Both the position numbers and the translations under genes were made by a program. Positions 22,478 to 58,009 of a stretch of DNA of 64,000 nucleotides are shown here, piece after piece (position 1 is the stretch's first letter; the number at the start of each line of letters is the position of its first letter). The notes under the pieces are model-generated. The model did no database searches, was not told the origin of the DNA, and saw only the letters and a program-made list of their open reading frames with translations. Source of the stretch: Planctomycetaceae bacterium (GTDB lineage Bacteria > Planctomycetota > Planctomycetia > Pirellulales > UBA1268); the NCBI GenBank assembly GCA_046075685.1, contig JBJTQP010000224.1, forward strand, positions 310-64,309, in the 5' to 3' direction.

Positions 22478-22485
22478 CGACGGCA

Positions 22486-22506
22486 CCGCAGGCTGCAAGC
22501 CCGCGG
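22486..22506. repeat. REP-like palindrome, type A core (ccgcaggct-gca-agcccgcgg)
   Basis: Direct reading. It lies 9 nt after the apgM stop. The same core occurs at 40150..40170 and 47166..47186. Confidence 0.85.
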
Positions 22507-22535
22507 CGAAGGGGTAATGGCTGCATCCCGCCCGC

Positions 22536-22563
22536 CCAGTAGGTGCAGGCTTGCAGCCTGCAC
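22536..22563. repeat. REP-like palindrome, type B (ccagtaggtgcaggcttgcagcctgcac)
   Basis: An identical 28-mer occurs at 47211..47238. Its core is a 9-bp stem, gtgcaggct / agcctgcac. Confidence 0.9.
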
Positions 22564-22663
22564 ACCGGTGACGGCAAAACACCAGCGACCACGCATGGAG
22601 GCTTCCCGACGCCGGAATCGCAACTAGAGTCGAGGGATACCGCCCAGGAGTTCCACGAGCCTG

Positions 22664-24317: not shown

Positions 24318-24403
24318 GGCCGAGTGGCGAAACTGGCAGACGCACGGGACTTAAAATCCCGTATCCCGCAAGGGGTGTGCGGGTTCGATCCCCGCCTCGG
24401 CCA
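24318..24403 (+). tRNA. tRNA-Leu (anticodon UAA), 86 nt, CCA not encoded
   Basis: I folded it by hand. The acceptor is ggccgag/ctcggcc with discriminator a. The anticodon arm is cggga-cttaaaa-tcccg, the variable arm is long, and the T arm is gcggg-ttcgatc-cccgc. Confidence 0.9.
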
Positions 24404-24472
24404 CTGCCCGCGAGGCCTCGCGGCCCGCAGTCGGCCTTGCCTCGGCCGCCCGCAGGCCGGTATCTCCCCGGC

Positions 24473-43682: not shown

Positions 43683-45056
43683 ATGGCGACGACGAACCCG
43701 ACGGTGTACAGGCTCACCATCGCCCTGGTGGTGTTCGTGCTGCTCACGTTCATCCTCACGATCACGACATACCTGTTCTTCAAGCAGCGGTCGGACGAGC
43801 AGGCCAAGGCCCTCGTCGCCGAGAAGGCCACGTCCGACAAACAGGCGGCCCTCAATGCCGCGGAGCAGGAGAACCGCCGGCTCCGCGAACTCATCGGGGC
43901 GGCCGAGGGCGCCACCCTGGAGACGGTCGAGACCGATCTCAACAACCTGTTCACAAAGGACTTCGCGGGCTTCAACGAGGAGCCCAAGTCCTACGGCAGG
44001 CTGGTGGCATGGCTGCGGGCGGAGTTTCAGCGGCGGGCGGCGGATGCGAAGGCGGCCGAGACGAAGCTCGCCGACTCGGCGAAGGCGGTGACGGCAGCCA
44101 GCAAGGACGTGGAGGCGGCCCGCCAGGACGCCGACAAGCGGGTCGGCGAGGCCCGCGACGAGCAGGCGACGCAGAAGAAGGAATACGACGACGCGCGGGC
44201 CACCCTCGAAAAGGAGAAGAACGACCTGCTCGCCCAGAAGCAGAAGGCCGAGGCCGAATCGACGCAGCTCGCGGGCCTCATCAAGGCGATCGGGATGCTG
44301 CAGGACGACGTTCCCTCCAAGAAAGACAAGTTCGCGGCCGCGCCGCCGGAACAGCGGCTGGAAATCCTGCGGAGCGAGATCATCGACCTGCGCAAGACCA
44401 TCCGGCAGCACAACGACGAACTGAAGGTGTTGCGAGCCTCGAAGCCGGAGGACCGCGTCATCGCCTTCGACGGCCACATCGCCACGGTGGACGCGGGCGA
44501 ACGGAGCGTGACGATCGTCTGCCCGACGACCCGCACTGCCCGGCCGGGCATGGAGCTCCGCGTGTTCCGTCCCGACATCCCGAATCCGAAGAATGCCGAC
44601 AGCAAGGCCACGCTCGTCGTGACGCGGATCGAGGGTGATTCGCGGCTTCGCGCGGCCATCCGCGGCGACGCGCCCGAGAATCCGATCATCCCCGGCGATG
44701 CCGTGGCCTCGAGCCTGTGGAATCCCGGGCCGATGGAGATCGCGGTGGTGGGCAGTCTCAACGTGGGCCGCGGGGCCGGCCCCGAAGACCGGGCCTGGCT
44801 CACGCGACGGATCGATGCCGCCGGGGGAAGCGTCTCCGCTGCGGTGACGTCCACGACGGCGTTCGTTCTCGACGGGGGTGACGCGCCGACTCCCGCCGAA
44901 ACGCCGGACGACGAGCCGACCAGGCAGCTCCGCTCCCAGCGGGAGTCGGCGCTGCGGGACGCCAAGAAATACGGCATCCCGGTCGGCGGGATCGACACGC
45001 TCGCCGACCTCCTCGGGCTCACGCCCGCGGATCTGGTGGCCACCCCGCGCCGCTGA
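43683..45056 (+). CDS. Membrane-anchored coiled-coil protein of unknown function
   Basis: It has an N-terminal TM helix (YRLTIALVVFVLLTFILTITTYLFF), about 230 aa of heptad-like charged sequence and a C-terminal globular region of about 200 aa. A GGGAG motif lies about 8 nt upstream of the ATG. Confidence 0.6.
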   Translation: MATTNPTVYRLTIALVVFVLLTFILTITTYLFFKQRSDEQAKALVAEKATSDKQAALNAAEQENRRLRELIGAAEGATLETVETDLNNLFTKDFAGFNEEPKSYGRLVAWLRAEFQRRAADAKAAETKLADSAKAVTAASKDVEAARQDADKRVGEARDEQATQKKEYDDARATLEKEKNDLLAQKQKAEAESTQLAGLIKAIGMLQDDVPSKKDKFAAAPPEQRLEILRSEIIDLRKTIRQHNDELKVLRASKPEDRVIAFDGHIATVDAGERSVTIVCPTTRTARPGMELRVFRPDIPNPKNADSKATLVVTRIEGDSRLRAAIRGDAPENPIIPGDAVASSLWNPGPMEIAVVGSLNVGRGAGPEDRAWLTRRIDAAGGSVSAAVTSTTAFVLDGGDAPTPAETPDDEPTRQLRSQRESALRDAKKYGIPVGGIDTLADLLGLTPADLVATPRR

Positions 45057-45145
45057 GCCTCACGGCGTCCGATGTCGCGACCCGGGCAGCGGTGGCATAA
45101 TGCCGCGGCGCCGCCGCAGCGTGGCTCCCCCCGGAGGTCCCCGTC

Positions 45146-46726
45146 ATGTCCGTGCCTGAACGTCGTCCGTGTGCCGTGGCCCTGCTGTGCGGCATGGCGG
45201 CCGTGCTGATGCTCGTCGCCCGCGCCCCGATCGCCCGCGCCGACGAGCCCGGGGTGCCGATCTTCAACGGCACGACGCTCGAGGGCTGGGAAGGTCGGCC
45301 GGGGTTCTGGAGGGTCGAGGATGGCGCGATCGTCGGCGAGACCACGGCCGAGAACCCCACGCAGGGCAACACGTTCCTGATCTGGCGGCAGGGGCTCGTC
45401 GACGACTTCGACCTCACGCTCCGGTACCGGATCACGGGCACGCCCAAGGCCAACAGCGGCATCCAGTACCGGAGCCGCGACCGCGGCGAGTTCGTGGTCA
45501 GCGGCTACCAGGCCGACTTCGAAGCCGGCCCGACCTACTCGGGCATCGTCTACGAGGAGAAGGGTCGCGGCATCCTCTGCCAGCGCGGCCAGCGGGCCAC
45601 GATCGCCGCCGACGGTGGCCAGCAGGCCGGTGAACCGATCGGCGACACCGACGAACTCCAGAAGACGATCAGGCCCGGCGAGTGGAACGACTACCGCATC
45701 GTGGCCCGCGGGCCGCGGCTGCAGCACTTCATCAACGGGCAGCTGATGTCGGAGGTGCTCGACGAGCAGGCCGACAAGCGGTCGCTGCAGGGCATCCTCG
45801 CGCTGCAACTCCACGCCGGGCCGCCGATGAAAGTCGAGTTCAAGGACATCCGCCTCGCGCGGCTGAAGCTTGCGGATGATCGCAGGAAGCTCGTGCTGGT
45901 GGCGGGCACGCCGAGCCACGGCCGGGGAGAGCACGAGCATCGGGCCGGCGTGATGCTCGCGGAGAAGTGTCTCGACGCGCACTTCGCCGGCGAGCCGCTG
46001 CCCCGGCTGGTGACCGAAACCTACACCGGCGGCTGGCCCACAGACCCCACCGCCTTCGACAACGCCGACGCGATCTTCTTCTTCGCCGACGGCGGCGGCG
46101 GCCATCCGGTGCTGCAGAGCAATCGCCTCGCCCAGGTCGATGCCCTGGCGAAGCGGGGCGTCGGCATCGCCTGCCTCCACTACGCCGTGGAGGTGCCCAA
46201 GGAGAAGGGCGGGCCCGAGTTTCTCAACTGGCTGGGGGGGTATTTCGAGCCGCACTGGTCGGTGAACCCGCACTGGACCCTCGCGGACACACAGGTCGCC
46301 GAGGGCCACCCGATCGTCCGCGGCGTGAAGCCCTTCGTGACCAACGACGAGTGGTACTACCACATGCGGTTTCGCGAGCCGCCGGAGGGCCTGACGATGA
46401 TCCTCACGGCCGTGCCGCCCGACGACACCCGCACAGGGGCGGATCACTCCCACCACGGCAATCCGGTCGTTCGTGCCGGCAAGGGCGACCGCGAGACGCT
46501 CGCCTGGGCCTACGAGCGGCCGGGCGGCGGCCGGGGATTCGGCTGCACCGGAGCGCACTTCCACCGCAACTGGGCGAACGACGACTTCCGCACGATGATG
46601 CTCAACGCCCTCGCCTGGACGGCCGGCCTCGAAGTCCCGGCAGGCGGCATTCCCTCGGCGGTGTCGGCCGACGACCTCGCGGCCAATCTTGACGAGTGGG
46701 ATGAGCAGCGATCGCGTAAAAAGTAG
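45146..46726 (+). CDS. Secreted DUF1080 (3-keto-disaccharide hydrolase-like) / ThuA-like fusion protein
   Basis: The N-terminal half reads PIFNGTTLEGWEG ... FWRVEDGAIVG ... NSGIQYR ... ALQLHAGPPMKVEFKDIRL (DUF1080 pattern). The C-terminal half reads LVLVAG ... HEHRAG ... DAIFFFADGGGGHP (ThuA-like pattern). Confidence 0.7.
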   Translation: MSVPERRPCAVALLCGMAAVLMLVARAPIARADEPGVPIFNGTTLEGWEGRPGFWRVEDGAIVGETTAENPTQGNTFLIWRQGLVDDFDLTLRYRITGTPKANSGIQYRSRDRGEFVVSGYQADFEAGPTYSGIVYEEKGRGILCQRGQRATIAADGGQQAGEPIGDTDELQKTIRPGEWNDYRIVARGPRLQHFINGQLMSEVLDEQADKRSLQGILALQLHAGPPMKVEFKDIRLARLKLADDRRKLVLVAGTPSHGRGEHEHRAGVMLAEKCLDAHFAGEPLPRLVTETYTGGWPTDPTAFDNADAIFFFADGGGGHPVLQSNRLAQVDALAKRGVGIACLHYAVEVPKEKGGPEFLNWLGGYFEPHWSVNPHWTLADTQVAEGHPIVRGVKPFVTNDEWYYHMRFREPPEGLTMILTAVPPDDTRTGADHSHHGNPVVRAGKGDRETLAWAYERPGGGRGFGCTGAHFHRNWANDDFRTMMLNALAWTAGLEVPAGGIPSAVSADDLAANLDEWDEQRSRKK

Positions 46727-46742
46727 CCCCCGGAGACAACCG

Positions 46743-47099
46743 ATGCCCACGCTGACCGTTGAAGGAAAAGACTCGTTCCAGGTGCCGGCCGGCAAGCGGC
46801 TGGTCAACGCGCTCGAGGACGAGTGCGGCACCGACCAGCTCCACGCCTGCGGCGGCGTGGCCCGCTGCACGACCTGCCGGGTCGAGTTCGTGGCCGGGGA
46901 GCCGGCGCGGATGACCCAGGCCGAGAAGGACGTGCTCGCGGCCAAGGGCGTGACCACGCCCGGCGTGCGGCTCTCCTGCCAGATCCCCTGTGACGCCGAC
47001 ATGACGGTGCGGCTGATCAGCCGCTTCGAGGGCTCGGGCCGCAAGGACTGCGGCCACCGCTGCGGCGACGCGATCGAGCCGCCGCCCGACTGGGTCTGA
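46743..47099 (+). CDS. [2Fe-2S] ferredoxin
   Basis: The Cys pattern is C-x5-C-x2-C ... C (ACGGVARCTTC ... LSCQI). Track ORF trimmed to MPTLTVEGK. Confidence 0.75.
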   Translation: MPTLTVEGKDSFQVPAGKRLVNALEDECGTDQLHACGGVARCTTCRVEFVAGEPARMTQAEKDVLAAKGVTTPGVRLSCQIPCDADMTVRLISRFEGSGRKDCGHRCGDAIEPPPDWV

Positions 47100-47162
47100 C
47101 GCGGTTGCTGCTGGCTGCATCGGACGTAGCCGGTCGGCCGGCGGTGACGTGCTCGCAGCCGG

Positions 47163-47191
47163 ATTCCGCAGGCTGCAAGCCTGCGGCTACG
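47163..47191. repeat. REP-like palindrome, type A (attccgcaggctgcaagcctgcggctacg)
   Basis: The core is a perfect 9-bp stem, ccgcaggct/agcctgcgg. It lies 64 nt after the ferredoxin stop. Confidence 0.9.
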
Positions 47192-47210
47192 GGAAACACC
47201 TGCCGTCCTG

Positions 47211-47238
47211 CCAGTAGGTGCAGGCTTGCAGCCTGCAC
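47211..47238. repeat. REP-like palindrome, type B (identical to 22536..22563)
   Basis: Direct reading shows 28/28 identity. Confidence 0.95.
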
Positions 47239-47253
47239 CAGAGTGCGGCGCGG

Positions 47254-47277
47254 GTTCCGCAGGCTACAAGCCCACGG
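47254..47277. repeat. Degenerate type A REP-like copy (gttccgcaggctacaagcccacgg)
   Basis: Direct reading. Several substitutions break the stem. Confidence 0.7.
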
Positions 47278-47288
47278 AACGGCCCGCG

Positions 47289-48671
47289 TCACGTCGCGCC
47301 TGCCGCGCCTGCCACGCCGAACAGCCGCTCGACGAGCCCTGCGACCTCGGCCATCGTGACCGCGTTCGCGGAGGTGACGTCGGGCTGCGATGCGATCAGG
47401 ATCGTCTCGCACGGATTCGCCGGATCGACGGCGCCGTGGGAGCCCTTCACGAGCGACGGGTCGAGCGGAATCGCGATCTGCGGCAGCCGCGTGCGGTCGA
47501 GGTGGAGTTCGAGCGGATCGTAGCCGGGCTTGCGGTGGATGTCGATCGTGCGGGCGAAGGTCGGGGCCCGGGCATCGTCGAGCCAGTAACAGTACGTCTG
47601 CCACGAGTCGAGCGTGCTCTCGATCACGAGGTCGCCGCAGCGGCTCTCGTCGCGGGCCTGGCCCGGCGACACGAGCCCGGCGGCGGCCAGTTCGTCGCCG
47701 TGGAGCACGCGGCCCACCCCCGCCCTGCCCCGAAAGAGATCGGCCACCGCCGCCGCGTCGGCCGGGTCGCGGAGAAACACGTGGCCGATCTGGTGGTCGG
47801 CGAGCGTCCAGGCCCGGCTTGCCCCGACATCGAGGATCTCGCCCTCACCCGTCTCGCGCACCGCCAGCAGGCCGGCCTCGCGGAGCACGCGGTTGGGATG
47901 CAGGGCGTGGGCCACCGGCCGGATGGCGTACTCGCCGGCCACGAGGACGGTCAGGTCGTCGCAGCCCACGAGGCCGCCGAAGTCGGCGATCAGCGTGCCG
48001 ATCTCGGCGTCGAGTTCGCCGCAGGCCGCATGCGCCTGCGGGCTGTCGGGGCCGGTTCGCTGGGCGGCGTAATCGAGGTGCGGGAGATAGACGAAGGCGA
48101 GGTGCGGCGGAGCGGGCCGCGACGCCTCCACGAAGCTCCTCGCGATCCACCGCGACGACTCGATCCCGGCGACCGGCCCCCAGAACCTGTGCAGCGGAAA
48201 CTCGCCGAGCGTCTCGCGGAGCGAGGCATAGAGCGGCTCCGGATTCGTATGGCACCACATCGTCTCGCTGCCGTCGGCGTTGTGCGTGGGCGCGGGCAGG
48301 CAGACGAGGTCGGCGGCGGCATGCTTCGACTGCAGCAGGAACCAGGCGGCCGTCCGCACCTCGGGCCGCGTCGCCTTGACCCGCTCCCAGAGCCGCGGCA
48401 CGCGGTGCACCGAATCAGGGCTGATCCACATCTCCAGGTGCTGCGACCGCCGGTCGAAGAGGCCGTTGGCGACGATCCCGTGCGCGGCGGGCGGCGCGCC
48501 GGTGGTGAGCGTGGCCTGCACGGGACAGGTGACCGCGGGAAAGCCGGGGGCGAGCGGCAGGCAGCGGCCCGCAGCGGCGAGGCCGGCGAGCACCGGCATC
48601 CGCGCGAGGTCGACGGCGCGGAGGCCGGGAACCGAAAGCACGAGCACGTGCGGGATGCGGGCGGTGGTCAT
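47289..48671 (-). CDS. Alkaline-phosphatase-superfamily protein, nucleotide pyrophosphatase/phosphodiesterase type (EboF-like)
   Basis: Track ORF trimmed to Met 92 (MTTARIPHVLVLSVPGLR). It has FPAVTCPVQATLTTG (the nucleophile-Thr region of type I phosphodiesterases) and YLPHLDYAAQRTGP. Its ATG overlaps the upstream stop by 4 nt. Confidence 0.7.
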   Translation of the reverse strand: MTTARIPHVLVLSVPGLRAVDLARMPVLAGLAAAGRCLPLAPGFPAVTCPVQATLTTGAPPAAHGIVANGLFDRRSQHLEMWISPDSVHRVPRLWERVKATRPEVRTAAWFLLQSKHAAADLVCLPAPTHNADGSETMWCHTNPEPLYASLRETLGEFPLHRFWGPVAGIESSRWIARSFVEASRPAPPHLAFVYLPHLDYAAQRTGPDSPQAHAACGELDAEIGTLIADFGGLVGCDDLTVLVAGEYAIRPVAHALHPNRVLREAGLLAVRETGEGEILDVGASRAWTLADHQIGHVFLRDPADAAAVADLFRGRAGVGRVLHGDELAAAGLVSPGQARDESRCGDLVIESTLDSWQTYCYWLDDARAPTFARTIDIHRKPGYDPLELHLDRTRLPQIAIPLDPSLVKGSHGAVDPANPCETILIASQPDVTSANAVTMAEVAGLVERLFGVAGAAGAT

Positions 48672-49513
48672 GCGGAGGCTCCGGGAGAGATGAGCGGGGC
48701 AAGCATGCGGGCCGACTCGCGGGCCGTCTCCAGCCAGCGGTGCGCCTGCCGCGGGAGTTCCACGTGCAGGCCGCCGTCGTAATCGGCAGCCGCCAGCGCC
48801 GCGACGGCCGCGGCGAGATCGACGTCGCCGCCGCCCAGCGGCAGGTGCTCGTGGCGGCAGGCGAGCATGTCGTCCACGTGGACGTTGGCGATCATCCCCC
48901 GCCACGGCTGCAGGTGAAGGGCGTACGGCCGTTCGCCCATGCACTCCAGGTGGCCGATGTCCACGGTGAGCCGCAGGTGTCCGGGGCGGCCGAGCCTCTC
49001 GAAGAGCGTGCCCGCCCCTGCGAGCGTGTCGATCACCATCCCGGGCTCTGGCTCACAGGCCACGATCAAGCGGGCGGCGGCGTGGTCGAGGATCGCGGCC
49101 ATGCCGTCCACGAGGCGATTCCACACCGCCTCGAGCGGCGCCGAGTCGCGGCCGACGCCCGACCAGAGCGACACGCCGCCGGCGCCCAGGTCGATCGCGA
49201 TGTCGATCGCCCGGCGCGTGAAGTCGATCCGCCGCGCCCGCGCCGCCGGATCCGCCGACACGAGCGTGGGTTCGTGCTTCACCGCGGGATCGAGGAGGTG
49301 GCGGGCGCCGGTCTCGACCACGCAGTCCATGCCGGCGGCGGCGAGGGCCTTCCGCCAGCGGGCGATCCGGCCGGGAAGATCGGCGGCGAACGGGTCGATC
49401 GTGTGACGATCGAGCGTGATCGCCAGCGACTCGTAGCCCAGATCGCGAAGCATCGGCACGGCGTCGAGCGGATCGACGTCGGCGATCGAGTTGGTGCTGA
49501 AGCCGAGCCGCAT
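48668..49513 (-). CDS. Xylose-isomerase-like TIM-barrel protein (sugar phosphate isomerase/epimerase family; EboE-like)
   Basis: It shows the typical AP_endonuc_2 pattern: MRLGFSTNS ... LGYESL ... VACEPEPG ... LTVDIGH ... HLPLGGGDVD. Confidence 0.7.
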   Translation of the reverse strand: MRLGFSTNSIADVDPLDAVPMLRDLGYESLAITLDRHTIDPFAADLPGRIARWRKALAAAGMDCVVETGARHLLDPAVKHEPTLVSADPAARARRIDFTRRAIDIAIDLGAGGVSLWSGVGRDSAPLEAVWNRLVDGMAAILDHAAARLIVACEPEPGMVIDTLAGAGTLFERLGRPGHLRLTVDIGHLECMGERPYALHLQPWRGMIANVHVDDMLACRHEHLPLGGGDVDLAAAVAALAAADYDGGLHVELPRQAHRWLETARESARMLAPLISPGASA

Positions 49514-49520
49514 GGATGGA

Positions 49521-50438
49521 TCAGGTGGGGGGCACGAGCCGGCGGCCGAGGATGAACCAGGCGACGAGCATGATCACCGCGATCGCCCACCGCTCGCCGC
49601 AGGCGGCGAGCACGAGGACGGCGTCGAGCGTGATGATCGCCATGATCGCATTGCCGACGGCCGCCCGCACCCGGCCGGGCGACGGGTCGGCGACGGCCTG
49701 CCCCGCCCGCACGAGGATCGATCCCGCCAGCAGCCCCCAGCAGGCGAGCCAGGTCGTGGATTCCAGCGTGGCCGTGCGGGTGTGGCCGTCGATCAGCGGC
49801 AGCCACACGAAGCCCGCCGCCGCCCCGAGGCCGAGGGCCATGACCACCGCCCCGACGGCGAGCGTGGCCCGGCGGTTGGTCGCGGCCTCGTCCCGCGCGA
49901 CGATCGTGATGCCGGCCACGTAGACGCTCATGCCGACCGGGATCATCCAGTCCGCCCGCGTCATCGGCCCGCCCGCTGCGGTCATCCCGAGCAGCCAGTT
50001 GAGCCCGCGGCAGGCCCCCATCACCGCCGGCCCGGCGCCGGTCGCCTTGGCGTGGCGGTCGTAGAGCCAGATCGCCGCGGTAAGGGCCGCGCCGACGAGC
50101 GCCGGCCACGGTGAGTTCGCCGCCACGGCCGCGGCGCAGGCGGCCGCGGCACCGACGGCCATCAGCACGCCGCCCACGAGCGCCGCCCGCGGCACCGCGA
50201 TGGCCCCGCTCGGCAGCGGCCGCTCGGGCCGCTCGACGCGATCGAGCTCCACGTCGCAGACGTCGTTGAGCACCATGCCCGCGGCGTAGAAGGCGACCGA
50301 CGCCAGCACGGCGAGCCCGCAGGCGGCCGGCGGCCAGTCGAGCGACGTGAGCCGCGAGACCACGAGAAACCCGGCCAGCGAGTCGGCCGCCGCCGAGGCG
50401 AGGTTCGGCAGCCGCATGAGCCGCGCCCACGCGAGCAT
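49521..50438 (-). CDS. UbiA-family aromatic/lipid prenyltransferase (EboC-like)
   Basis: It is a polytopic membrane protein with the first Asp-rich motif NDVCDVELDRVERPERPLPSG. The start is at MLAWARLMRLPN, 1 nt after the upstream stop. Confidence 0.8.
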   Translation of the reverse strand: MLAWARLMRLPNLASAAADSLAGFLVVSRLTSLDWPPAACGLAVLASVAFYAAGMVLNDVCDVELDRVERPERPLPSGAIAVPRAALVGGVLMAVGAAAACAAAVAANSPWPALVGAALTAAIWLYDRHAKATGAGPAVMGACRGLNWLLGMTAAGGPMTRADWMIPVGMSVYVAGITIVARDEAATNRRATLAVGAVVMALGLGAAAGFVWLPLIDGHTRTATLESTTWLACWGLLAGSILVRAGQAVADPSPGRVRAAVGNAIMAIITLDAVLVLAACGERWAIAVIMLVAWFILGRRLVPPT

Positions 50439-50439
50439 C

Positions 50440-51315
50440 TCAGGCAAGCTCCACGCCGGCGGTGGACGCCACGGCGAGGAGATGCCGCCGCGCCGCACGG
50501 GCCGCGTCGTCGGGCCGGTCGCGATAGGGGTAGAGTTCGACCGTCACCCAGATGTCGGGGGTATGCATGGCGATGGCCTGCAGCGTGGCCGCGAAATCGA
50601 TCGCGCCCTCACCGGGCACGAGGTGGTGATGCACCCGCGTGGCCGCGATGTCCTCGACATGGTAGTGCCGCGTGTGGGCCTTCATCCGCGGCACCCACTC
50701 CGCGGGATCCTCGCCCACGCAGTAGGCGTGGCCGACGTCGAAGTTGAGGCCGAGCGCCGGATGATTCACCCGCTCGGCAAACTCCAGGTACTGCCCGAAC
50801 GTCTCGATCAGCAGCCCCGGCTCCGGCTCGATGAGGAGCGTCACGCCGCAGTCGGCCGCCACGTCGAGCACGGGCATGATTTCGTCGTAGAAGATGGCGG
50901 CTGCCTGCTCCCGGGCCTGCCCCGGCTGAACCTCGCCCCCGGGCTCGGTGGAGATGTGCGGCGCCCCGAGCTCGGCGGCCAGCTTCAAGGCCCGCTTGGT
51001 GTGCTCGCGCCGGATCGCCCGGTAGTGCGGGTCGGGATCGGTCCAGCCTGGATGCCAGTAGGGCTGCCGCGGATCGGCGATCGCGTTCATCATGAACGCG
51101 TTGATGTTCGAGACGACGAGGCCGCTGGCCCCAAGCGCCCGCCGGATCGACTCCTTCTGCACCTCGAGCAGCCCGGCCGGCCACGCATGCGGCACGTCGG
51201 CGAGCAGCTCGATGCCGCCATAGCCGAAGCCGGCGATCCGCGCGATCGCCTGCTCCACCGGCACGTCGAGATACGCATTGGAGCTGAAGGCGAGGCGCAA
51301 AGGCATGACGATCAT
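50440..51315 (-). CDS. Second xylose-isomerase-like TIM-barrel protein
   Basis: The sequence LRLAFSSNAY ... FGYGGIELL ... LLIEPEPG ... LNFDVGHAY ... HLVPGEGAIDF is paralogous in pattern to 48668..49513. Confidence 0.7.
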   Translation of the reverse strand: MIVMPLRLAFSSNAYLDVPVEQAIARIAGFGYGGIELLADVPHAWPAGLLEVQKESIRRALGASGLVVSNINAFMMNAIADPRQPYWHPGWTDPDPHYRAIRREHTKRALKLAAELGAPHISTEPGGEVQPGQAREQAAAIFYDEIMPVLDVAADCGVTLLIEPEPGLLIETFGQYLEFAERVNHPALGLNFDVGHAYCVGEDPAEWVPRMKAHTRHYHVEDIAATRVHHHLVPGEGAIDFAATLQAIAMHTPDIWVTVELYPYRDRPDDAARAARRHLLAVASTAGVELA

Positions 51316-51500
51316 CCGTTGTGTTGGCTAGAAGACTATACCCGCCACTGGCCCACCGCGAACGGCAGCAGCCCGTCGGAGGCACGCGCAGGAGCCGGGG
51401 AGCTGTGTGCCTCGCCGGACGCGCTCGGTGCCGTTTGGGCGGTGAACTCACAAAGCCCCCCGGCGACGAGCATGTCCTCCGACGGGCTGCGGCGCATCGC

Positions 51501-51722
51501 CTACGGCCAGAGCATCACCCGAGTCTCCACCCAGCGGGGCCGCACCGGCAGCCGCTCGAGCTCTGTGTAGACCATCGCCGCCGGATTGACGCCGCGGGAC
51601 TCCATGGCGGCCACGTGTCGCTCGATGACGCGACAGCGGCCGATCCACGGCAAGAACCCGCACCACACGACGGCGAGCCCGGCCACCACCGCCGCCAAGC
51701 GAATCACGCGGCCGGAACTCAC
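51501..51722 (-). CDS. Possible small membrane protein (73 aa)
   Basis: Its GTG start overlaps the stop of the upstream UPF0324 gene (GTGA). It has one hydrophobic helix (VIRLAAVVAGLAVVWCGFLPWI) and GC-rich third positions. No homology is known to me. Confidence 0.35.
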   Translation of the reverse strand: MSSGRVIRLAAVVAGLAVVWCGFLPWIGRCRVIERHVAAMESRGVNPAAMVYTELERLPVRPRWVETRVMLWP

Positions 51723-53113
51723 GGCTCCACCGCCTTCTTGAACAGCCAGCCGAAGGTCAGGCTCGCCATGGCCAGCGTGAGCACGAGGTTGAGGATCTGC
51801 CCGCCGACGTAGAGCACGAGCGGCCGGCCGCTGGAGAGCACCGGGGCCAGTTCACGGATGTTGGTCTGCAGGCCCATGCACACGAAGCTGGCGCAGAACA
51901 GCCAGCCGCGGAGCCGCGACGTGAAGCCCGTGGTGGTGCCGTCAACCCACAGCGCGCCTTCCGGTGAACCGCTGAAGATCCACGAGCAGGCGAGGGATGC
52001 GGCCAGGAAGCCGAGGATGAATCGCGGAAACCTGGCCCAGGCCTCGGCGACGAGCGACCTCTCCCGCGGCCCGGCGGAGCGGTCCACCCAGCCGGCCCAG
52101 TAGACCGCGACCGCGAAGGCGATGATCCCGATCATCGAGTTCTGGATCATCTTCACCGTGGCCGCCACCTCGCCGGCCTCCTTGCCGAGCGACTCGCCGG
52201 CGGCGACCACCGCCCCCGTGGCGTCGATCGTGCCGCCGATCCAGGCTCCGCCCAGGATCGGGTCGAGCCCCAGCCACTCGATCGCGGGCGGCATGACCAC
52301 CATCATGATCACGGTGAAGAAGAGCGACAGGCCGATCGCCAGCGAGAGTTCCTCCTTCTTCGCCCGGCAGGCGGCCCCGGTGGCGATCGCGGCGGAGACG
52401 CCGCAGACCGACATGTCGGCCGACACCACCATGCACAGCGGCTTCGACGGGATCCCGAGCACGTGCACGCCGCACCAGTAGGTCGTGACCAGGACGATCG
52501 GCGTCACGACCCAGGCCGTGAGGAAGCCCGGCAGGCCCAGCTCGAGAAGCCGGCCGAAGAGCACCTCGGCCCCGAAGACCACGAGGCCCGTCTTGATGAG
52601 GAACTCTCCCGCCAGCGCCCGCTCCAGCCACGGCGGCACCCCGACCACGTTGCCGAGCAGGATCCCGATCAGGAGGGCCCACAGTGGATACTCGAGGTTG
52701 TAGAAGTGGATCACCTTCTGCGCGGAGAGCAGGTACGCCGCGCCGGCGAGTGCGGCCAGCGCGACCGCCCCCGGCAGCATCCGGGCCGCCGGCCGGCCGC
52801 CGAGCGCCGCCCCGGCGACCGCCACGGCCACCACCCACGCCCCGCCGAGCACGATCGGCACCACGACGGCCTCGCCCTGCCTGTCGCGAAACGCCGCCAG
52901 CGGCGAATCGGCCCAGGTCTGCGGCTTGTCGATCGTGCGGGCCAGTGGCGTGGGCCAGCCCTTCGGCCACCGCTGGCGGCTCCCCGCCGCCTCGTCCGGG
53001 CGGGCAGACCAGGTCGCGGCGAGACCGCAGGCCACGAGCGCCAGGCCCACGATCGTCGCCACCACGTCCTCGTGCAGGCCGGATTGCCGCGTGGATGATT
53101 TCGGCGTCGTCAT
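51719..53113 (-). CDS. UPF0324 / YeiH-family membrane protein (putative sulfate-exporter-family transporter)
   Basis: Track ORF trimmed to Met 259 (MTTPKSS). It is polytopic, with CMVVSADMSVCGVSAAIATGAA and GGAWIGGTIDATGAVVAAG, which are characteristic of the family. Confidence 0.7.
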   Translation of the reverse strand: MTTPKSSTRQSGLHEDVVATIVGLALVACGLAATWSARPDEAAGSRQRWPKGWPTPLARTIDKPQTWADSPLAAFRDRQGEAVVVPIVLGGAWVVAVAVAGAALGGRPAARMLPGAVALAALAGAAYLLSAQKVIHFYNLEYPLWALLIGILLGNVVGVPPWLERALAGEFLIKTGLVVFGAEVLFGRLLELGLPGFLTAWVVTPIVLVTTYWCGVHVLGIPSKPLCMVVSADMSVCGVSAAIATGAACRAKKEELSLAIGLSLFFTVIMMVVMPPAIEWLGLDPILGGAWIGGTIDATGAVVAAGESLGKEAGEVAATVKMIQNSMIGIIAFAVAVYWAGWVDRSAGPRERSLVAEAWARFPRFILGFLAASLACSWIFSGSPEGALWVDGTTTGFTSRLRGWLFCASFVCMGLQTNIRELAPVLSSGRPLVLYVGGQILNLVLTLAMASLTFGWLFKKAVEP

Positions 53114-53154: not shown

Positions 53155-53973
53155 TCAACTCGAGGCCGAACGATACCGGGCCAGCGCCCGCTGAAACACG
53201 ATCCGCGACACCACGAGCGCCGCGATCGCGGCACTCACGGCGGCGGCCACGCCCCCCCACGACTCGCCCGTGAACGGCTGGGCGATCACGCGGGCCGGCA
53301 CGTTGACGACCAGCAGGATCGGGATCACGAACGTGCAGATCGTCCGCAGCGGTCCGCCCCACGGACCGGCGTAGATCTCGGCGGGGTAGCGGGAGAAGTT
53401 CGTGAGGTAGAACCAGAAGTCGTAGAGGCTCTGGTTGCGGCCCATCAGGATCGTGGCGGCGGCGAGCATGATCACCAGGCCGTAGAGGATCGCCACGCCG
53501 CAGAGCAGCAGCAGCGGATAGAGCAGCCAGGCCACCGGCGGCGGCGCGTGCTCCATCCGCCCCAGCGACCAGGCGAGCAGGCCCACGCCCACGAGGCCGT
53601 TGGCCAGCGACGAGAAATCGACCCGGTGCAGCGAGAGCAGGAACTGGGCGTCGAGGGGCTGCACGAGCACGGCGTCGAGGCCGCCGGTGCGGACGAGCTC
53701 CGTGAGCTCCTCCGCGCTCGGCATGAAGAAGGCCTGCACGATCGAGTTGATGATCAGCCCCGTGGCCACGAACGCGAAGAACGGCGCCTTCGACCAGCCG
53801 CTCCCCTTGCCGATCTCGGACGTGTAGGTGAACACGAGCAGGTAGAAGGCGAGGTTCATCGACATCCAGCCGAGGCTCGTGAGGCACTCGAGGATGAAGT
53901 TCGCCCGGAAGGTCATGTCGCGGACGAGGCAGGCCCGGGCGAACGTCAGGAAGATGGCGAGGTAGCGGTGCAC
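53155..53973 (-). CDS. ABC-2 family transporter permease (ABC2_membrane_6-like)
   Basis: It starts MHRYLAIFLTFARACLVRDMTFRANF and has six hydrophobic segments. It is paired with a paralogue and an ABC ATPase. Confidence 0.7.
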   Translation of the reverse strand: MHRYLAIFLTFARACLVRDMTFRANFILECLTSLGWMSMNLAFYLLVFTYTSEIGKGSGWSKAPFFAFVATGLIINSIVQAFFMPSAEELTELVRTGGLDAVLVQPLDAQFLLSLHRVDFSSLANGLVGVGLLAWSLGRMEHAPPPVAWLLYPLLLLCGVAILYGLVIMLAAATILMGRNQSLYDFWFYLTNFSRYPAEIYAGPWGGPLRTICTFVIPILLVVNVPARVIAQPFTGESWGGVAAAVSAAIAALVVSRIVFQRALARYRSASS

Positions 53974-53974
53974 G

Positions 53975-54841
53975 TCAGCCTCCGAAGCCGCTGTACCGCC
54001 GGGTGCCCCGCCACCAGGCGACGCGGCAGGCGACCGCCATCACCACCACCCAGCCGGCCTCGATCGCCAGCGCGGCGGCGAGATCGGCCCCCTGCACCTT
54101 GCCGAGCCAGATCGCCGACGAGAAGTAGGCGGTGTATTCGAAGGGCAGCCAGTGGACGACGTCGGCGAGCGTGGCGGGGCCCACGGGCACCGTGCGGAGC
54201 AGGTCGATCGGGAACATGTGGCCCGAGAGCAGGTACTGCACGAGCATGTAGCCGAACACGATGCTCGACACCTCCATGAACCAGAAGCCGAGCATCCCCA
54301 GCGCCGCCTCCATGAAGAAGCCGAGCAGGAACGAGAGCACGAGCGAGAGCAGGAAGGCGGCGATCGTGACGGCGTCGGGAACAGGCGGGAAGTAGCCGCG
54401 ACAGAGAAAGAACACGAGGGCGAACGGGAGCGCGGCCACGGCATAGTAGACGAGCTTGTGGGCCACGCGGGCGGCCAGCAGGAACGAGACGTAGTCGACC
54501 GGCTGGATGAGGAACTTCTTCACCGAGCCGTCGCGGACGCTGCGGGCGATGCCGCCCGCGAGCCCCGGCATGCTCGAGAAGGCGCGGGTGAGCATGGTGA
54601 GCAGGTAGTAGGCCACGATGTCGTTCCGCGAGTAGCCGGCGATGTCGCCCCGGCTGGTCGCGGAGAACACGGCCGTCCAGAGGAAGACCTGCGTGACGAT
54701 CGGCAGGAACCGCATCAGGGTGCCGAGCGCGAAGTCGCCCCGGTAGACGAGCCGCTCCTCGAGGCAGATCCTCAGCATCGTCCACCACGTCCGCAGCCCC
54801 TGCAGCGGCCGGGAGGCCGCGGGTGTGCCGGCAGCGGTCAT
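53975..54841 (-). CDS. ABC-2 family transporter permease (paralogue)
   Basis: Track ORF trimmed to Met 370 (MTAAGTP ... LRICLEERLVYRGDF). Its ATG overlaps the ATPase stop by 4 nt. Confidence 0.7.
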   Translation of the reverse strand: MTAAGTPAASRPLQGLRTWWTMLRICLEERLVYRGDFALGTLMRFLPIVTQVFLWTAVFSATSRGDIAGYSRNDIVAYYLLTMLTRAFSSMPGLAGGIARSVRDGSVKKFLIQPVDYVSFLLAARVAHKLVYYAVAALPFALVFFLCRGYFPPVPDAVTIAAFLLSLVLSFLLGFFMEAALGMLGFWFMEVSSIVFGYMLVQYLLSGHMFPIDLLRTVPVGPATLADVVHWLPFEYTAYFSSAIWLGKVQGADLAAALAIEAGWVVVMAVACRVAWWRGTRRYSGFGG

Positions 54842-55887
54842 CGCCCCGCCCCCGCCGCGGCGGCCGCCTCGCGGGCGTCGCCGCGGAAGAGTTCCGCCAC
54901 GATCTCCTCGAGCGGCACGTCCTCCACCGACACGTCGCGGACGCCGGCCGCTCCGAGGATCCCCGGCAGCACGTCGGCGATCCGGGTGCGGTCGATGCGG
55001 AGCACGGCCTGCGGTCCGCGGACCTCGCAGGGAAACCCGAACCGCTCGAGGCGGCCCCGGTCGGGCGTCTTGTCGAAGTCGAGGGTCACGATCTTGTGCG
55101 TGGTGAACCGGTCGACGATCTCGGCCAGGGAGCCGTCGTAGAGCACCTCGCCGCGGGTGATCACCACCACCCGCTCGCAGAGCGCGGCCACGTCCTTCAT
55201 GTAGTGGGTGGTCAGGATCACCGTCATCCGCCGCCGCCGCTGCACGCCGCGGAGAAACTCGTGGATCGTGTGCTGGGCGACCACGTCGAGGCCGATCGTC
55301 GGCTCGTCGAGAAACAGCACCTCGGGCTCGTGGAGCAGGGCCGCCACGAGCTCCAGCTTCATCCGCTCGCCGAGCGAAAGCTCGCGGACCGGCTGCAGCA
55401 CGAGCCGCCCGACGCCGAGCAGGTCGACGAGCTCGTCGCGGGTCTTCTCGAACCGGGCCGGCTCGATGCGATAGATCTCCTGGTGGAGGCGGAAGCTCTC
55501 GGCCGCGGGCAGGTCCCACCAGAGCTGGTTCCGCTGGCCCATCACGAGGGCGAAGCGACGGCGGAAGTCGTCGGCCCGCTCCCAGGGCACGTGCCCGAGA
55601 ACCGTGGCCGTGCCGCGGGTGGGCGTGATGATGCCGGAGAGCAGCTTGAGGAGCGTGGTCTTGCCGGCGCCGTTGGGCCCCAGCAGGGCGACGAACTCGC
55701 CGCGACCGACCCCCAGATCGACGCCCTTCACCGCCTCCACCACGCGGCTGGTGCGGTGGAACAGCGCCCTCACGCTCGCCGCCAGCCCCTCCGGCTTGTC
55801 GAAGACCCGATAGTCCTTGGCGAGGCCCGCCACGCGGATGACCGGCTCGTCGGGCCGGTCCACGGCGGCAGGATCGGTGTTGTGCAT
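54838..55887 (-). CDS. ABC transporter ATP-binding protein
   Basis: It has Walker A (GPNGAGKTT), the signature LSLGERMK, Walker B (VLFLDEPT) and a C-terminal extension of about 100 aa. The start is at MHNTDP. Confidence 0.85.
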   Translation of the reverse strand: MHNTDPAAVDRPDEPVIRVAGLAKDYRVFDKPEGLAASVRALFHRTSRVVEAVKGVDLGVGRGEFVALLGPNGAGKTTLLKLLSGIITPTRGTATVLGHVPWERADDFRRRFALVMGQRNQLWWDLPAAESFRLHQEIYRIEPARFEKTRDELVDLLGVGRLVLQPVRELSLGERMKLELVAALLHEPEVLFLDEPTIGLDVVAQHTIHEFLRGVQRRRRMTVILTTHYMKDVAALCERVVVITRGEVLYDGSLAEIVDRFTTHKIVTLDFDKTPDRGRLERFGFPCEVRGPQAVLRIDRTRIADVLPGILGAAGVRDVSVEDVPLEEIVAELFRGDAREAAAAAGAGR

Positions 55888-55937: not shown

Positions 55938-56414
55938 ATGCACCGCATCGGTCTCGGTCACGACACGCACCGCCTCGGCCCCGGCGACACGCTGGTGCTC
56001 GGCGGCGTGCGAATCCCCCACGACCGCGCCGCGATCGGCCACAGCGACGCCGACGTGCTCCTCCACGCGATCACCGACGCCCTGCTCGGCGCGGCGGCCC
56101 TCGGCGACATCGGCGAGCTGTTTCCCGACACCGATCCGGCGAACCGGGGCCGCGACTCGGCCGACATGCTGCGGCGGGCGTGCGATCTCGTGGCGGCGGC
56201 GGGCTGGCGGCTCGTGAACCTGGATTGCGTGATTTTCGCCCAACGGCCCAAAATCCTCCCGCACCGCCCGGCGATCCGGCGGCGGATCGCGGAGATCCTC
56301 GGCGTCGACGAGTCGGCCGTGTGGCTCAAGGCCAAGACGGGCGAGGGCGTGGGCCCGATCGGCACGGAGCTCGCGATCGCCGCCGAGTGCGTCGTGCTCG
56401 TTGACCGGTCGTGA
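55938..56414 (+). CDS. ispF: 2-C-methyl-D-erythritol 2,4-cyclodiphosphate synthase
   Basis: The sequence RIGLGHDTHRL ... GHSDADVLLHAITDALLGA ... GDIGELFPD is diagnostic. Confidence 0.9.
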   Translation: MHRIGLGHDTHRLGPGDTLVLGGVRIPHDRAAIGHSDADVLLHAITDALLGAAALGDIGELFPDTDPANRGRDSADMLRRACDLVAAAGWRLVNLDCVIFAQRPKILPHRPAIRRRIAEILGVDESAVWLKAKTGEGVGPIGTELAIAAECVVLVDRS

Positions 56415-56443
56415 CAGGACAACCTGACGGAAGCGGAGGCGAG

Positions 56444-58009
56444 ATGGCGATGGTGGACGCGGTGGCCGGACTCCCCGGGATCGAGATCTACAGCACCCTG
56501 ACGCGGGCCAAGACGCCGCTGGTCACCGTGCAGCCGGGCCACGTGGGCATGTACCTCTGCGGCCCCACGGTCTACAAGCCGAGCCACATCGGCCACATGG
56601 TCGGCCCGGTGATCTTCGACACCGTCAAGCGGCACCTCGTCTACTCGGGCTGGCGGGTGACGTGGGTCGTCAACGTGACCGACGTCGACGACAAGATCAT
56701 CGCCGAGAGCACCGCCCGCGGCACGACGATGGAGAAGCTCGCCGCGGAGATGACGGCCGACTACCTCGAGAACCTCGCCACGCTGGGCGTGACCGGCATC
56801 GACGAGATGCCGAAGGCCACGGACCACATCGGCACGATCATCGCGTTCATCGAGGGCCTGATCGCCAAGGGCTGCGCCTACTCAAGCGATGGCGACGTCT
56901 ACTTCGACGTGACCCGCGACGCCGACTACGGCAAGCTCACCAACCGCACCGTCGAGAGCACGCAGGGCGAAGGGGGCTCGACCGCGGACCGGAAAAAGTC
57001 GGCGGCCGACTTCGCCCTCTGGAAGAAGGCCAAGCCGGGCGAGCCCGCCTGGGACAGTCCCTGGGGCCCCGGCCGGCCCGGCTGGCACATCGAGTGCTCG
57101 GCGATGAGCAAGGCGATCCTCGGGCCGCACTTCGACATCCACGGCGGCGGCCTCGACCTCGTGTTTCCGCATCACGAAAACGAGATCGCCCAGAGCGAAT
57201 CGCTCCACGACTGCCCGATGGCCACGTTCTGGATGCACAACGGCCTGATGCAGGCCGGGGGCGCCGCCGGCAAGGTGGGCGGCCGGCCACGGGGCGAGGC
57301 GGGCGCGGCCGACGATGCGGCGGCGCAGGCGGCCACCAAGATCTCGAAGTCGACCGGCGCGGAGCCCTTCAAGAACCTGCTGGCCCGGCATCGCCCCGAG
57401 GCGATCCGCGTGCTCCTCCTCTCCACCCACTACCGCAGCCCGATCCACTTCGGCGAGGAACCGCTCGGCGAGAGCGCCCGGGCGATGGAGGCGTTCGAGA
57501 GGCTCTTCGCCCGCTCCCAGCGGGTGAGCGGCAAAACCTTCTATGCCCTGCCGTGCCGCGACCGCCGGGCCGGCGACGCCTCCGTGGCGGCGGCCGGCGA
57601 GGAAGTGCGGGTGCTGCGCGAGAAGTTCCTCGCGGCGATGGACGACGACTTCAACACGGCGATTGCGATCGCGTCGCTGTTCGACTACGTCCGGGTGGTG
57701 AACAAGTTCATCGACCAGCACGGCCTGGAGGCGAAGAAGCCACCGGCTGAACTGGCCACGCTCGACGCGATGATACTCACGCTCAGGGAACTCACCGGCG
57801 TGCTCGGCCTGTTCCTCGAGCCGCCGAAGCAGCAGGGCGGCGCCGACGAGGGCCTCGTGGCGGCACTCATGGACCTCGTGATCGAGATCCGGGCCAATGC
57901 CCGCAAGGCGAAGGATTTCGCGACCGCCGATCTCGTGCGGACCAAGCTCACCGCCGCGGGCATCGTGCTCGAAGACCGCCCCGACGGCACGGGCTGGACG
58001 CGGAAGTAG
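56444..58009 (+). CDS. cysS: Cysteine--tRNA ligase
   Basis: It has YLCGPTVYKPSHIGH (HIGH), WHIECSAM, the KISKS (KMSKS) motif and a C-terminal anticodon-binding helical domain. The start was taken at ATG 56444; the track gives GTG 56411. Confidence 0.9.
   Translation: MAMVDAVAGLPGIEIYSTLTRAKTPLVTVQPGHVGMYLCGPTVYKPSHIGHMVGPVIFDTVKRHLVYSGWRVTWVVNVTDVDDKIIAESTARGTTMEKLAAEMTADYLENLATLGVTGIDEMPKATDHIGTIIAFIEGLIAKGCAYSSDGDVYFDVTRDADYGKLTNRTVESTQGEGGSTADRKKSAADFALWKKAKPGEPAWDSPWGPGRPGWHIECSAMSKAILGPHFDIHGGGLDLVFPHHENEIAQSESLHDCPMATFWMHNGLMQAGGAAGKVGGRPRGEAGAADDAAAQAATKISKSTGAEPFKNLLARHRPEAIRVLLLSTHYRSPIHFGEEPLGESARAMEAFERLFARSQRVSGKTFYALPCRDRRAGDASVAAAGEEVRVLREKFLAAMDDDFNTAIAIASLFDYVRVVNKFIDQHGLEAKKPPAELATLDAMILTLRELTGVLGLFLEPPKQQGGADEGLVAALMDLVIEIRANARKAKDFATADLVRTKLTAAGIVLEDRPDGTGWTRK

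Follow-up and report, generated by a model that had tools for sequence, protein, structure and literature searches.

We propose that four tightly packed genes on the minus strand of a 64,000-nucleotide stretch of DNA from a Planctomycetaceae bacterium (contig JBJTQP010000224.1 of a metagenome-assembled genome; this whole stretch is called the window below) represent a Planctomycete version of the inositol-type ebo gene cluster, which lacks eboD. The products of this cluster would make a meroterpenoid of the thallusin or saccharoquinoline class, or a close analogue, that is exported by a neighboring ABC-2 pump. We give this interpretation a probability of roughly 0.6. Among conserved gene clusters without an assigned function, ebo was for a decade one of the most widespread, and a preprint from May 2026 now ties eboB, eboC, eboE and eboF to thallusin, a picomolar algal morphogen, and to saccharoquinoline (10.64898/2026.05.21.724671). 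Clusters of the ebo type are a known kind, and the compact arrangement proposed here (TIM1, eboC-like, TIM2 and eboF genes that lack EboD and EboE and reside beside an ABC-2 exporter) appears to be undescribed in the literature that we examined.

Several results from this preprint bear directly on the locus. Deletion of eboB, eboC, eboE or eboF in Stieleria maiorica abolishes thallusin. EboC proteins from three phyla, with a planctomycete and an eboD-less actinomycete among the sources, farnesylate hydroxyquinaldate esters, and the quinoline ring takes in aspartate. For actinomycetes, inositol-3-phosphate is the proposed source of the same cyclitol, and Saccharomonospora, which carries an inositol-type cluster, produces both saccharoquinoline and thallusin (10.64898/2026.05.21.724671). 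An earlier note made on this DNA considered the chemistry of ebo clusters to be still open, which is now outdated by the assignment to thallusin biosynthesis. Its suggested product, a prenylated, phosphorylated polyol lipid, is no longer the leading guess because the preprint links eboB/C/E/F to thallusin and because EboC farnesylates hydroxyquinaldates. The note also described the locus as a reduced ebo-like cluster. This view survives in that the locus is of the ebo type, with an EboC-like prenyltransferase, an EboF and no EboD, and is syntenic in relatives. The roles that the note gave to the TIM barrels, as EboE and as a replacement for TatD, do not hold.

The four genes of the cluster are as follows.

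50440..51315, minus strand: TIM1, a small xylose-isomerase-like TIM barrel (291 amino acids; PF01261, 132 bits)
49521..50438, minus strand: UbiA, an EboC-like membrane prenyltransferase (305 amino acids from the ATG; PF01040, 60 bits; NDVCDVELD)
48668..49513, minus strand: TIM2, likewise a small xylose-isomerase-like TIM barrel (281 amino acids; PF01261, 108 bits)
47289..48671, minus strand: PDE, an EboF-type phosphodiesterase/phosphatase of the alkaline-phosphatase superfamily (460 amino acids; PF01663, 147 bits)

Open reading frames (ORFs) and Pfam matches agree with the earlier description of four minus-strand genes spanning 47289-51315 that code for a TIM barrel, a UbiA protein, another TIM barrel and a phosphodiesterase (PDE), and the NDVCDVELD motif reported for UbiA is present. 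Likewise, the spacings that had been claimed are confirmed by reading the junctions. The TIM1 and UbiA genes are separated by 1 nucleotide (TGA-g-ATG), the UbiA and TIM2 genes are separated by 7 nucleotides (TGA-tccatcc-ATG), and the TIM2 and PDE genes share a 4-nucleotide overlap (ATGA). All four genes appear to be translationally coupled. Genes in the window were called by codon-position GC content, and values at third codon positions of 0.83-0.96 for all four genes, in a window of 71% GC, indicate that each is coding.

The EboC-like prenyltransferase and the EboF-type phosphodiesterase

The best match of UbiA among NCBIfam models is EboC (178.9 bits; cut-off 250), followed by the SCO3242 family (146.7 bits; cut-off 260). 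The third model, PRK12884, which is labeled only 'prenyltransferase', reaches 65.8 bits (cut-off 269). Below this are the geranylgeranylglycerol-phosphate geranylgeranyltransferase (DGGGPS-type) model with 59 bits and the generic UbiA-like model TIGR01475 with 21 bits, and there were no matches to the MenA and haem O synthase models at E≤0.01 in the scan with NCBIfam and family models. The protein does not exceed the family cut-off of any MenA, UbiA, CyoE, ChlG or DGGGPS model, with PRK12884 at the top and the rest at no more than 59 bits.

Relatives of UbiA were collected by an exhaustive HMMER search, which yielded 258 cluster representatives at E<1e-30. The best 150 of these 258 representatives (50%-cluster) were grouped by identity, and a single representative was scanned for each of the largest groups, 10 in total. 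These are without exception EboC-like, with scores of 155-204 bits on EboC and lower scores on SCO3242, and the UbiA relatives therefore form an EboC-like clade outside the reach of NCBI's narrow equivalog model. A cluster from Sedimenticolaceae (locus L082) is instructive in this regard. Its UbiA protein also scores below the cut-off (198.9 bits on EboC), yet the gene is clustered with those for EboA, EboB, EboE (433 bits) and EboF. Because a protein from such a bona fide EboA/B/E/F cluster scores no higher than this, the EboC cut-off is narrow and not decisive.

Conserved motifs and phylogeny point in the same direction. UbiA carries NDxxDxxxD, ERPxRPxPSG (ERPERPLPSG in the window protein), MGxCRxxNxLLG (MGxCRxLNxLLG) and R-x-E (RDE), and these motifs are common to the EboC proteins of Flagellimonas, Bacillus, Haloferax and Streptomyces. 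In a neighbor-joining tree, UbiA nests within a Planctomycete EboC-like clade together with Roseimaritima sediminicola, and the genus Roseimaritima includes a confirmed thallusin producer (10.64898/2026.05.21.724671). Canonical EboC proteins from Bacteroidota, to which the window protein is 31-38% identical, are located on the opposite side of the tree. The best-scoring family, the clade motifs and the tree position all place UbiA among EboC-type proteins. The earlier note had set the grouping of this protein as a test of its prediction that UbiA is EboC-like and not of the menaquinone, ubiquinone, haem O or DGGGP type, and both the model scores and the neighbor-joining clade bear this out.

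For the remaining ebo genes, hidden Markov models (HMMs) were built from ten Bacteroidota eboABCDEF operons retrieved in the related-locus scan described below. One of these operons was verified with NCBIfam models (EboC, 368 bits; EboE, 481 bits; an EboA domain, a TatD protein and a dehydroquinate synthase (DHQS)-like protein). PDE scores 322 bits on the HMM of the 10 Bacteroidota EboF proteins, and it is 33-41% identical to five proteins from four phyla and one archaeon, namely the EboF, or the PDE encoded in the cluster, of Flagellimonas, Sedimenticolaceae, Bacillus, Haloferax and Streptomyces. These alignments cover nearly the full length of the protein, with the exception of Haloferax, where query residues 9-417 of 460 are aligned. 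Other NCBIfam models for the alkaline-phosphatase superfamily give at most 30 bits, and the range is 30-46 bits when nucleotide pyrophosphatases (NPPs) from PDB are included. The active site is specific to EboF, wherein the first metal-binding Asp of NPPs is replaced and the Thr nucleophile, PHLD and KGSHG are retained. PDE and EboF have (S/G)EY at the place where NPPs have SDH. The proposal that the phosphodiesterase is EboF is therefore well founded, given both the HMM score and this common altered active site, and we judge PDE to be a true, full-length EboF relative within the EboF-type PF01663 phosphodiesterases.

Two small TIM barrels distinct from EboE

The gene order UbiA-TIM-PDE had been equated with eboC-eboE-eboF. 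The UbiA and PDE parts of this equation fit, but TIM2 is not EboE. On the EboE model (NF035939; cut-off 250), TIM2 scores 14.8 bits and TIM1 scores 28.3 bits. Comparison of family alignments with hhalign gives 2.7% for TIM2 against EboE and 91% for TIM1 against EboE over only 157 columns, and 99.9% probability over the full length for TIM1 against TIM2. Furthermore, EboE (~400 amino acids) barely matches PF01261 (PMC5133447), unlike TIM1 and TIM2, which match this family strongly. Neither TIM1 nor TIM2 is EboE, and TIM2 was rejected as a candidate for this protein.

TIM1 also does not occupy the place of TatD (eboB), as had been suggested. On plasmids of Bacillus and Haloferax, a TIM1-type gene resides between the TatD and prenyltransferase genes, and eboB is located a few kb away in some Planctomycete relatives. 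Among the genes of the module, TIM1 shows the strongest conservation, with 79-92% identity in 20 close loci and 58-70% identity beside UbiA proteins of only 32-43% identity. It is 42% identical (225 bits) to a barrel encoded just upstream of eboC on a Bacillus cereus plasmid, and 41-42% identical to barrels from Haloferax pHV3. TIM2 aligns over its full length (46% identity, 209 bits) with a Streptomyces sugar phosphate isomerase/epimerase encoded directly downstream of an SCO3242-family prenyltransferase. A distance tree resolves the small barrels into three clades, of which one joins TIM2 to the Streptomyces protein and another joins TIM1 to Bce_TIMa and Hvo_TIMa.

TIM1 and TIM2 both adjoin the prenyltransferase, in the positions held by their Bacillus and Streptomyces counterparts, as small PF01261 barrels do in eboD-less, inositol-type ebo clusters. 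We take them to be orthologues of the small accessory TIM barrels in eboD-less ebo clusters linked to inositol-phosphate synthase. These small barrels would very probably correspond to the Ino2 and Ino3 proteins of the preprint (Saccharomonospora sp. CNQ-490).

The metal-ligand pattern of TIM1 (E163/E165, D193/H196, H219/E221 and E260) is invariant, as are the metal ligands of TIM2. Profile matches of TIM1 in PDB include MJ1311, IolI, Art22 and AsbF, and both barrels have weak similarity to IolE, IolI, IolO, UlaE and xylose isomerase. The remote likeness of TIM1 to IolI, IolE and the dehydroshikimate dehydratase AsbF fits a role in cyclitol isomerization or dehydration. A literature search on SCO3242, Art22 and MJ1311 gave nothing useful.

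Gene order in relatives and the ABC-2 exporter

Related loci, denoted by L and a number, were retrieved in a scan seeded with a 12-sequence UbiA alignment, and their neighboring genes were typed by targeted tblastn. Synteny of the four genes in relatives was another test set by the earlier note. The trio TIM1-UbiA-TIM2 is present in 20 of 20 close loci (UbiA 53-74% identical; all from metagenome-assembled genomes (MAGs) of Planctomycetota). The PDE gene adjoins the trio in 13 of these loci, and at least six show no PDE gene in the flank that is available. In a wider Planctomycete clade, where UbiA is 32-43% identical, 27 of about 47 loci retain at least one of TIM1, TIM2, EboF, EboB or inositol-3-phosphate synthase (MIPS) beside UbiA, in every combination. 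EboB (TatD) is encoded within 7 kb of an orthologous UbiA in L032, L040, L043, L057 and L059, and the MIPS gene is located directly upstream in L073 (synthase-TIM1-UbiA-TIM2) and in L050. Neither EboD nor EboE was found by HMM search near UbiA in any Planctomycete locus retrieved.

The public names of some of these MAGs look wrong. Four loci (L004, L006, L014 and L048) are labeled Candidatus Kuenenia stuttgartiensis and one (L015) is labeled Chitinophagaceae. The genes of L004, L006, L014 and L015 follow, one for one, the order seen in loci from lake MAGs of Pirellulales and Planctomycetaceae. L048 shows nothing more than an EboC-like UbiA, which the tree places with the Planctomycete clade.

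Upstream of the four genes are three that together code for a predicted ABC-2 exporter.

54838-55887, minus strand: exporter ATPase (ABC_tran domain)
53975-54841, minus strand: exporter permease (PF06182 domain)
53155-53973, minus strand: exporter permease (PF06182 domain)

The ATPase is DrrA-like (197 bits). Wherever a close-family locus has enough flank, the exporter directly precedes the ebo genes on their strand, and the same is seen in 9 distant Planctomycete loci. In the window, the exporter is preceded by divergently oriented genes for IspF, which is the methylerythritol cyclodiphosphate (MEcPP) synthase of the methylerythritol phosphate (MEP) isoprenoid pathway, and for CysS (55938-58009, plus strand). 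This pair is syntenic in most relatives and probably reflects ordinary gene-order conservation. L040 (1-6126) runs from EboB through the ABC ATPase and two permeases to EboC and EboF, with the IspF-CysS pair moved to the other side. Because the EboB-ABC-EboC-EboF arrangement is retained in this locus while IspF-CysS has been relocated, the exporter appears to travel with the ebo genes, and it is probably part of the same functional unit as the four genes.

Related clusters that lack eboD were found on annotated plasmids by tblastn. On pHV3 of Haloferax volcanii (NC_013964.1; L084, 243-249 kb), the order is TatD-TIM-UbiA-TIM, divergent from inositol-3-phosphate synthase-PDE. On a plasmid of B. 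cereus (NZ_CP053952.1; L085, 373-379 kb), the order is TIM-TatD-TIM-eboC-PDE-inositol-3-phosphate synthase. A plasmid of Streptomyces sp. NBC_00376 (L086) carries genes for MIPS, an SCO3242-family prenyltransferase, a small TIM barrel, an EboA domain, TatD, EboE and an EboF of the alkaline-phosphatase family. Canonical EboE was found on the Streptomyces plasmid and on other plasmids, and none was found on those of Bacillus and Haloferax. Where a cluster has two small barrels, EboE is therefore missing. L084 and L085 are complete six-gene clusters on megaplasmids that lack eboD and eboE, and their hosts are genetically tractable (H. volcanii, a model haloarchaeon, and B. cereus). Another eboD-less cluster is found in L082 (5318-12413; Sedimenticolaceae, Gammaproteobacteria), where a small TIM barrel gene is followed, in this order, by genes for EboC-like, EboA-like, EboB, EboE and EboF proteins and is preceded by a cytochrome b561 gene.

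Comparison with these systems helps to place the window locus. Like the canonical eboABCDEF operons of Bacteroidota, Cyanobacteria and eustigmatophyte plastids (Yurchenko 2016; Klicki 2018), it has tight gene packing, TIM-barrel chemistry and, in the same relative order, a prenyltransferase of the EboC clade and an EboF. However, it lacks EboA, EboB, EboD and EboE, and it has two barrels of ~285 amino acids (PF01261) instead of the ~400-amino acid EboE. As in the actinomycete cluster (L086), there is no EboD, a small TIM barrel 46% identical to TIM2 is encoded directly downstream of the prenyltransferase, and the EboF is 39% identical to the PDE of the window. The actinomycete cluster differs from the window in that a single operon includes EboA, EboB, EboE and the synthase, and in that the stretch seen has no TIM1-type barrel. 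The B. cereus and Haloferax clusters also have two small TIM barrels, a prenyltransferase and an EboF-like PDE but neither EboD nor EboE, and they carry a TIM1 orthologue immediately upstream of the prenyltransferase. In contrast to the window, they include TatD and inositol-3-phosphate synthase, their second barrel falls outside the TIM2 clade, and no ABC-2 exporter adjoins them. Finally, the Planctomycete ebo genes of the preprint (Stieleria and Rhodopirellula) come from the same phylum and lack eboA, and the EboC-like clade is common with Roseimaritima. Those genes are reported to be scattered, whereas the window and at least 40 MAG loci have eboC and eboF grouped with TIM1, TIM2 and an exporter.

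The earlier note was also correct that the DHQS-like cyclase EboD is missing, with no match in the window or in the fetched Planctomycete loci. Nor do L082 and the actinomycete, Bacillus and Haloferax clusters have EboD, and EboA is reported to be absent in most Planctomycetota (10.64898/2026.05.21.724671).

Proposed pathway and competing explanations

If the cluster is of the inositol type, its starting compound would most likely be inositol-3-phosphate, produced by a synthase encoded elsewhere in the genome. EboF, TIM1 and TIM2 might then dephosphorylate and isomerize or dehydrate the cyclitol phosphate to give a deoxy-inosose or a hydroxylated ring precursor, and this step would take over the roles of EboD and the large EboE in canonical operons. 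Conversion of the ring precursor into a hydroxyquinaldate-type acceptor would involve aspartate and EboB, a TatD-like hydrolase encoded elsewhere. The EboC-like enzyme would prenylate this acceptor, probably from farnesyl diphosphate, to form the thallusin- or saccharoquinoline-class meroterpenoid or an analogue, and the neighboring ABC-2 pump would export the product. The locus shows that the pathway genes in many uncultured Planctomycetes, several lake MAGs among them, are compact and not scattered. Two small TIM barrels stand where canonical operons have EboD and EboE, and the exporter is physically joined. The proposal also defines a small gene set consisting of the exporter, TIM1, eboC, TIM2 and eboF, together with eboB and inositol-3-phosphate synthase.

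A number of observations weigh against this interpretation. UbiA, at 178.9 bits, misses the NCBIfam EboC cut-off of 250. No EboA, EboB, EboD or EboE was found in the 64-kb window by HMM searches, and no inositol-3-phosphate synthase (ino1) was found in the window either. The pathway is not completable from the 64-kb window alone, and both eboB and the synthase must be encoded elsewhere in the genome if it is complete. In the preprint, the ebo genes of Planctomycetes are said to be scattered and eboE counts as a core gene (10.64898/2026.05.21.724671), and the route that lacks EboE is something we infer. The link from ebo genes to thallusin itself comes from a preprint. No close characterized relative of TIM1 or TIM2 was found, in that their top PDB profile matches reach ~80 bits and are to an uncharacterized protein. 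Moreover, the adjacency of the exporter could be due to inherited gene order rather than to function.

The same enzyme families might instead make a different product, namely a membrane lipid or carrier consisting of a prenylated cyclitol or other inositol derivative, whose inositol head group is tailored by TIM1 and TIM2 and whose phosphate is trimmed by EboF. A prenylated cyclitol was the product for which an earlier study had argued (PMC5133447), and this alternative to a quinoline meroterpenoid goes back to the hypothesis of the Yurchenko type. The link between eboD-less clusters and inositol-3-phosphate synthase would suit such a lipid, as would the inclusion of the inosose isomerase IolI and of IolE among the profile matches of TIM1 and the weak similarity of UbiA to DGGGPS-like models (59-66 bits). 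Also in keeping with this idea, EboE, which according to the preprint is needed for thallusin in Stieleria, is missing both here and on the Bacillus and Haloferax plasmids. Nevertheless, we regard a lipid product as unlikely. Planctomycete and eboD-less actinomycete EboC proteins farnesylated hydroxyquinaldate esters, Saccharomonospora makes saccharoquinoline and thallusin with an inositol-type cluster, and the UbiA of the window resides in the same clade as genes of marine Pirellulaceae.

There are two further explanations. One is that the UbiA protein anchors, as a non-catalytic membrane component, an operon for the catabolism or salvage of inositol or a rare sugar. The barrels do resemble IolE, IolI, IolO, UlaE and xylose isomerase, if only weakly, but the Asp-rich motifs of the prenyltransferase are intact and invariant. 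In addition, the unit has no conserved kinase, dehydrogenase or sugar importer, the neighboring transporter is of the exporter type, and the linked gene in other taxa is that of an inositol-phosphate synthase, a biosynthetic enzyme, and not a catabolic gene, which makes a catabolic operon very improbable. Still harder to credit is a housekeeping UbiA enzyme (menaquinone, ubiquinone, haem O, chlorophyll or DGGGP synthase) that happens to sit beside unrelated sugar-metabolism genes. Some homologues are annotated as 4-hydroxybenzoate polyprenyltransferase and there are weak matches to DGGGPS-like models, but the JGI names are automatic and generic, and the housekeeping models give at most 66 bits against cut-offs of 180-490, compared with 179 bits for EboC. 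Furthermore, the gene order with TIM1, TIM2 and EboF is kept down to 35% UbiA identity and across phyla and domains.

Returning to the proposed meroterpenoid cluster, a broader and more tentative idea is that a second ebo route without EboD and EboE, based on inositol-3-phosphate synthase and barrels of the TIM1 and TIM2 types, operates in Planctomycetes and on Bacillus and haloarchaeal plasmids, and that in Planctomycetes it is hard-wired to a DrrAB-like ABC-2 exporter. We consider this generalization to be doubtful at present. If true, abundant freshwater planktonic planctomycetes would make and secrete a thallusin-class signal or a distinct prenylated cyclitol, and the long-suspected 'metabolite traffic' side of ebo would gain a concrete transporter.

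Other features in and around the cluster

Several additional features were noted in the window.

51719..53113, minus strand: gene for a YeiH-family membrane protein (PF03601, 161 bits), between the exporter and TIM1
51501..51722, minus strand: 73-amino acid ORF that overlaps the stop codon of the YeiH-like gene (GTGA)
51335..51340, minus strand: TATAGT, a -10-like hexamer 19 nucleotides before the TIM1 ATG (51315)
47140..47270, no strand assigned: palindromic repeat element with two hairpins, just after the EboF stop codon and between convergent genes
24318-24404, plus strand: tRNA-Leu (anticodon TAA)

The YeiH-like gene is a variable component. It is found in 10 close loci and is absent in L002, L014, L019 and L020. 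The product of the 73-amino acid ORF has no Pfam match, and tblastn reveals that it is 46-64% identical in 10 related loci that also have the YeiH-like gene.

The earlier note had pointed out a -10-like hexamer upstream of TIM1, and TATAGT is indeed present on the minus strand at the position given above. It is the sole copy in the window, and at least one copy occurs in 35 of 100 shuffled sequences, so the hexamer is not significant alone. No -35 partner was detected by a sigma-70 scan. Three relatives have TACAAT, TAGAAT or TAGGAT (TAnnnT) at a similar position, and a promoter near this site is plausible but unproven. A scan for sigma-70 promoters and terminators at the 5′ and 3′ ends of the cluster gave nothing convincing.

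Downstream of PDE, an ORF at 44027-47044 was rejected as a shadow ORF on the basis of codon-position GC, and the true neighbor is a convergent ThuA/3-keto-disaccharide hydrolase gene. The repeat element in the intervening region has a second copy at 22460-22590 (81% identical), and each copy is ~100 nucleotides in length with two GCAGGCT-NNN-AGCCTGC hairpins. This pattern has 4 matches in the window compared to 0.02 expected. The RNA fold of the repeat has a predicted free energy of -88 kcal/mol (z = -4.6), and the element may be a terminator or a repetitive extragenic palindromic (REP)-like element. No riboswitch or other RNA element was found near the cluster with Rfam, and apart from the tRNA-Leu listed above, no RNA gene was detected in the window.

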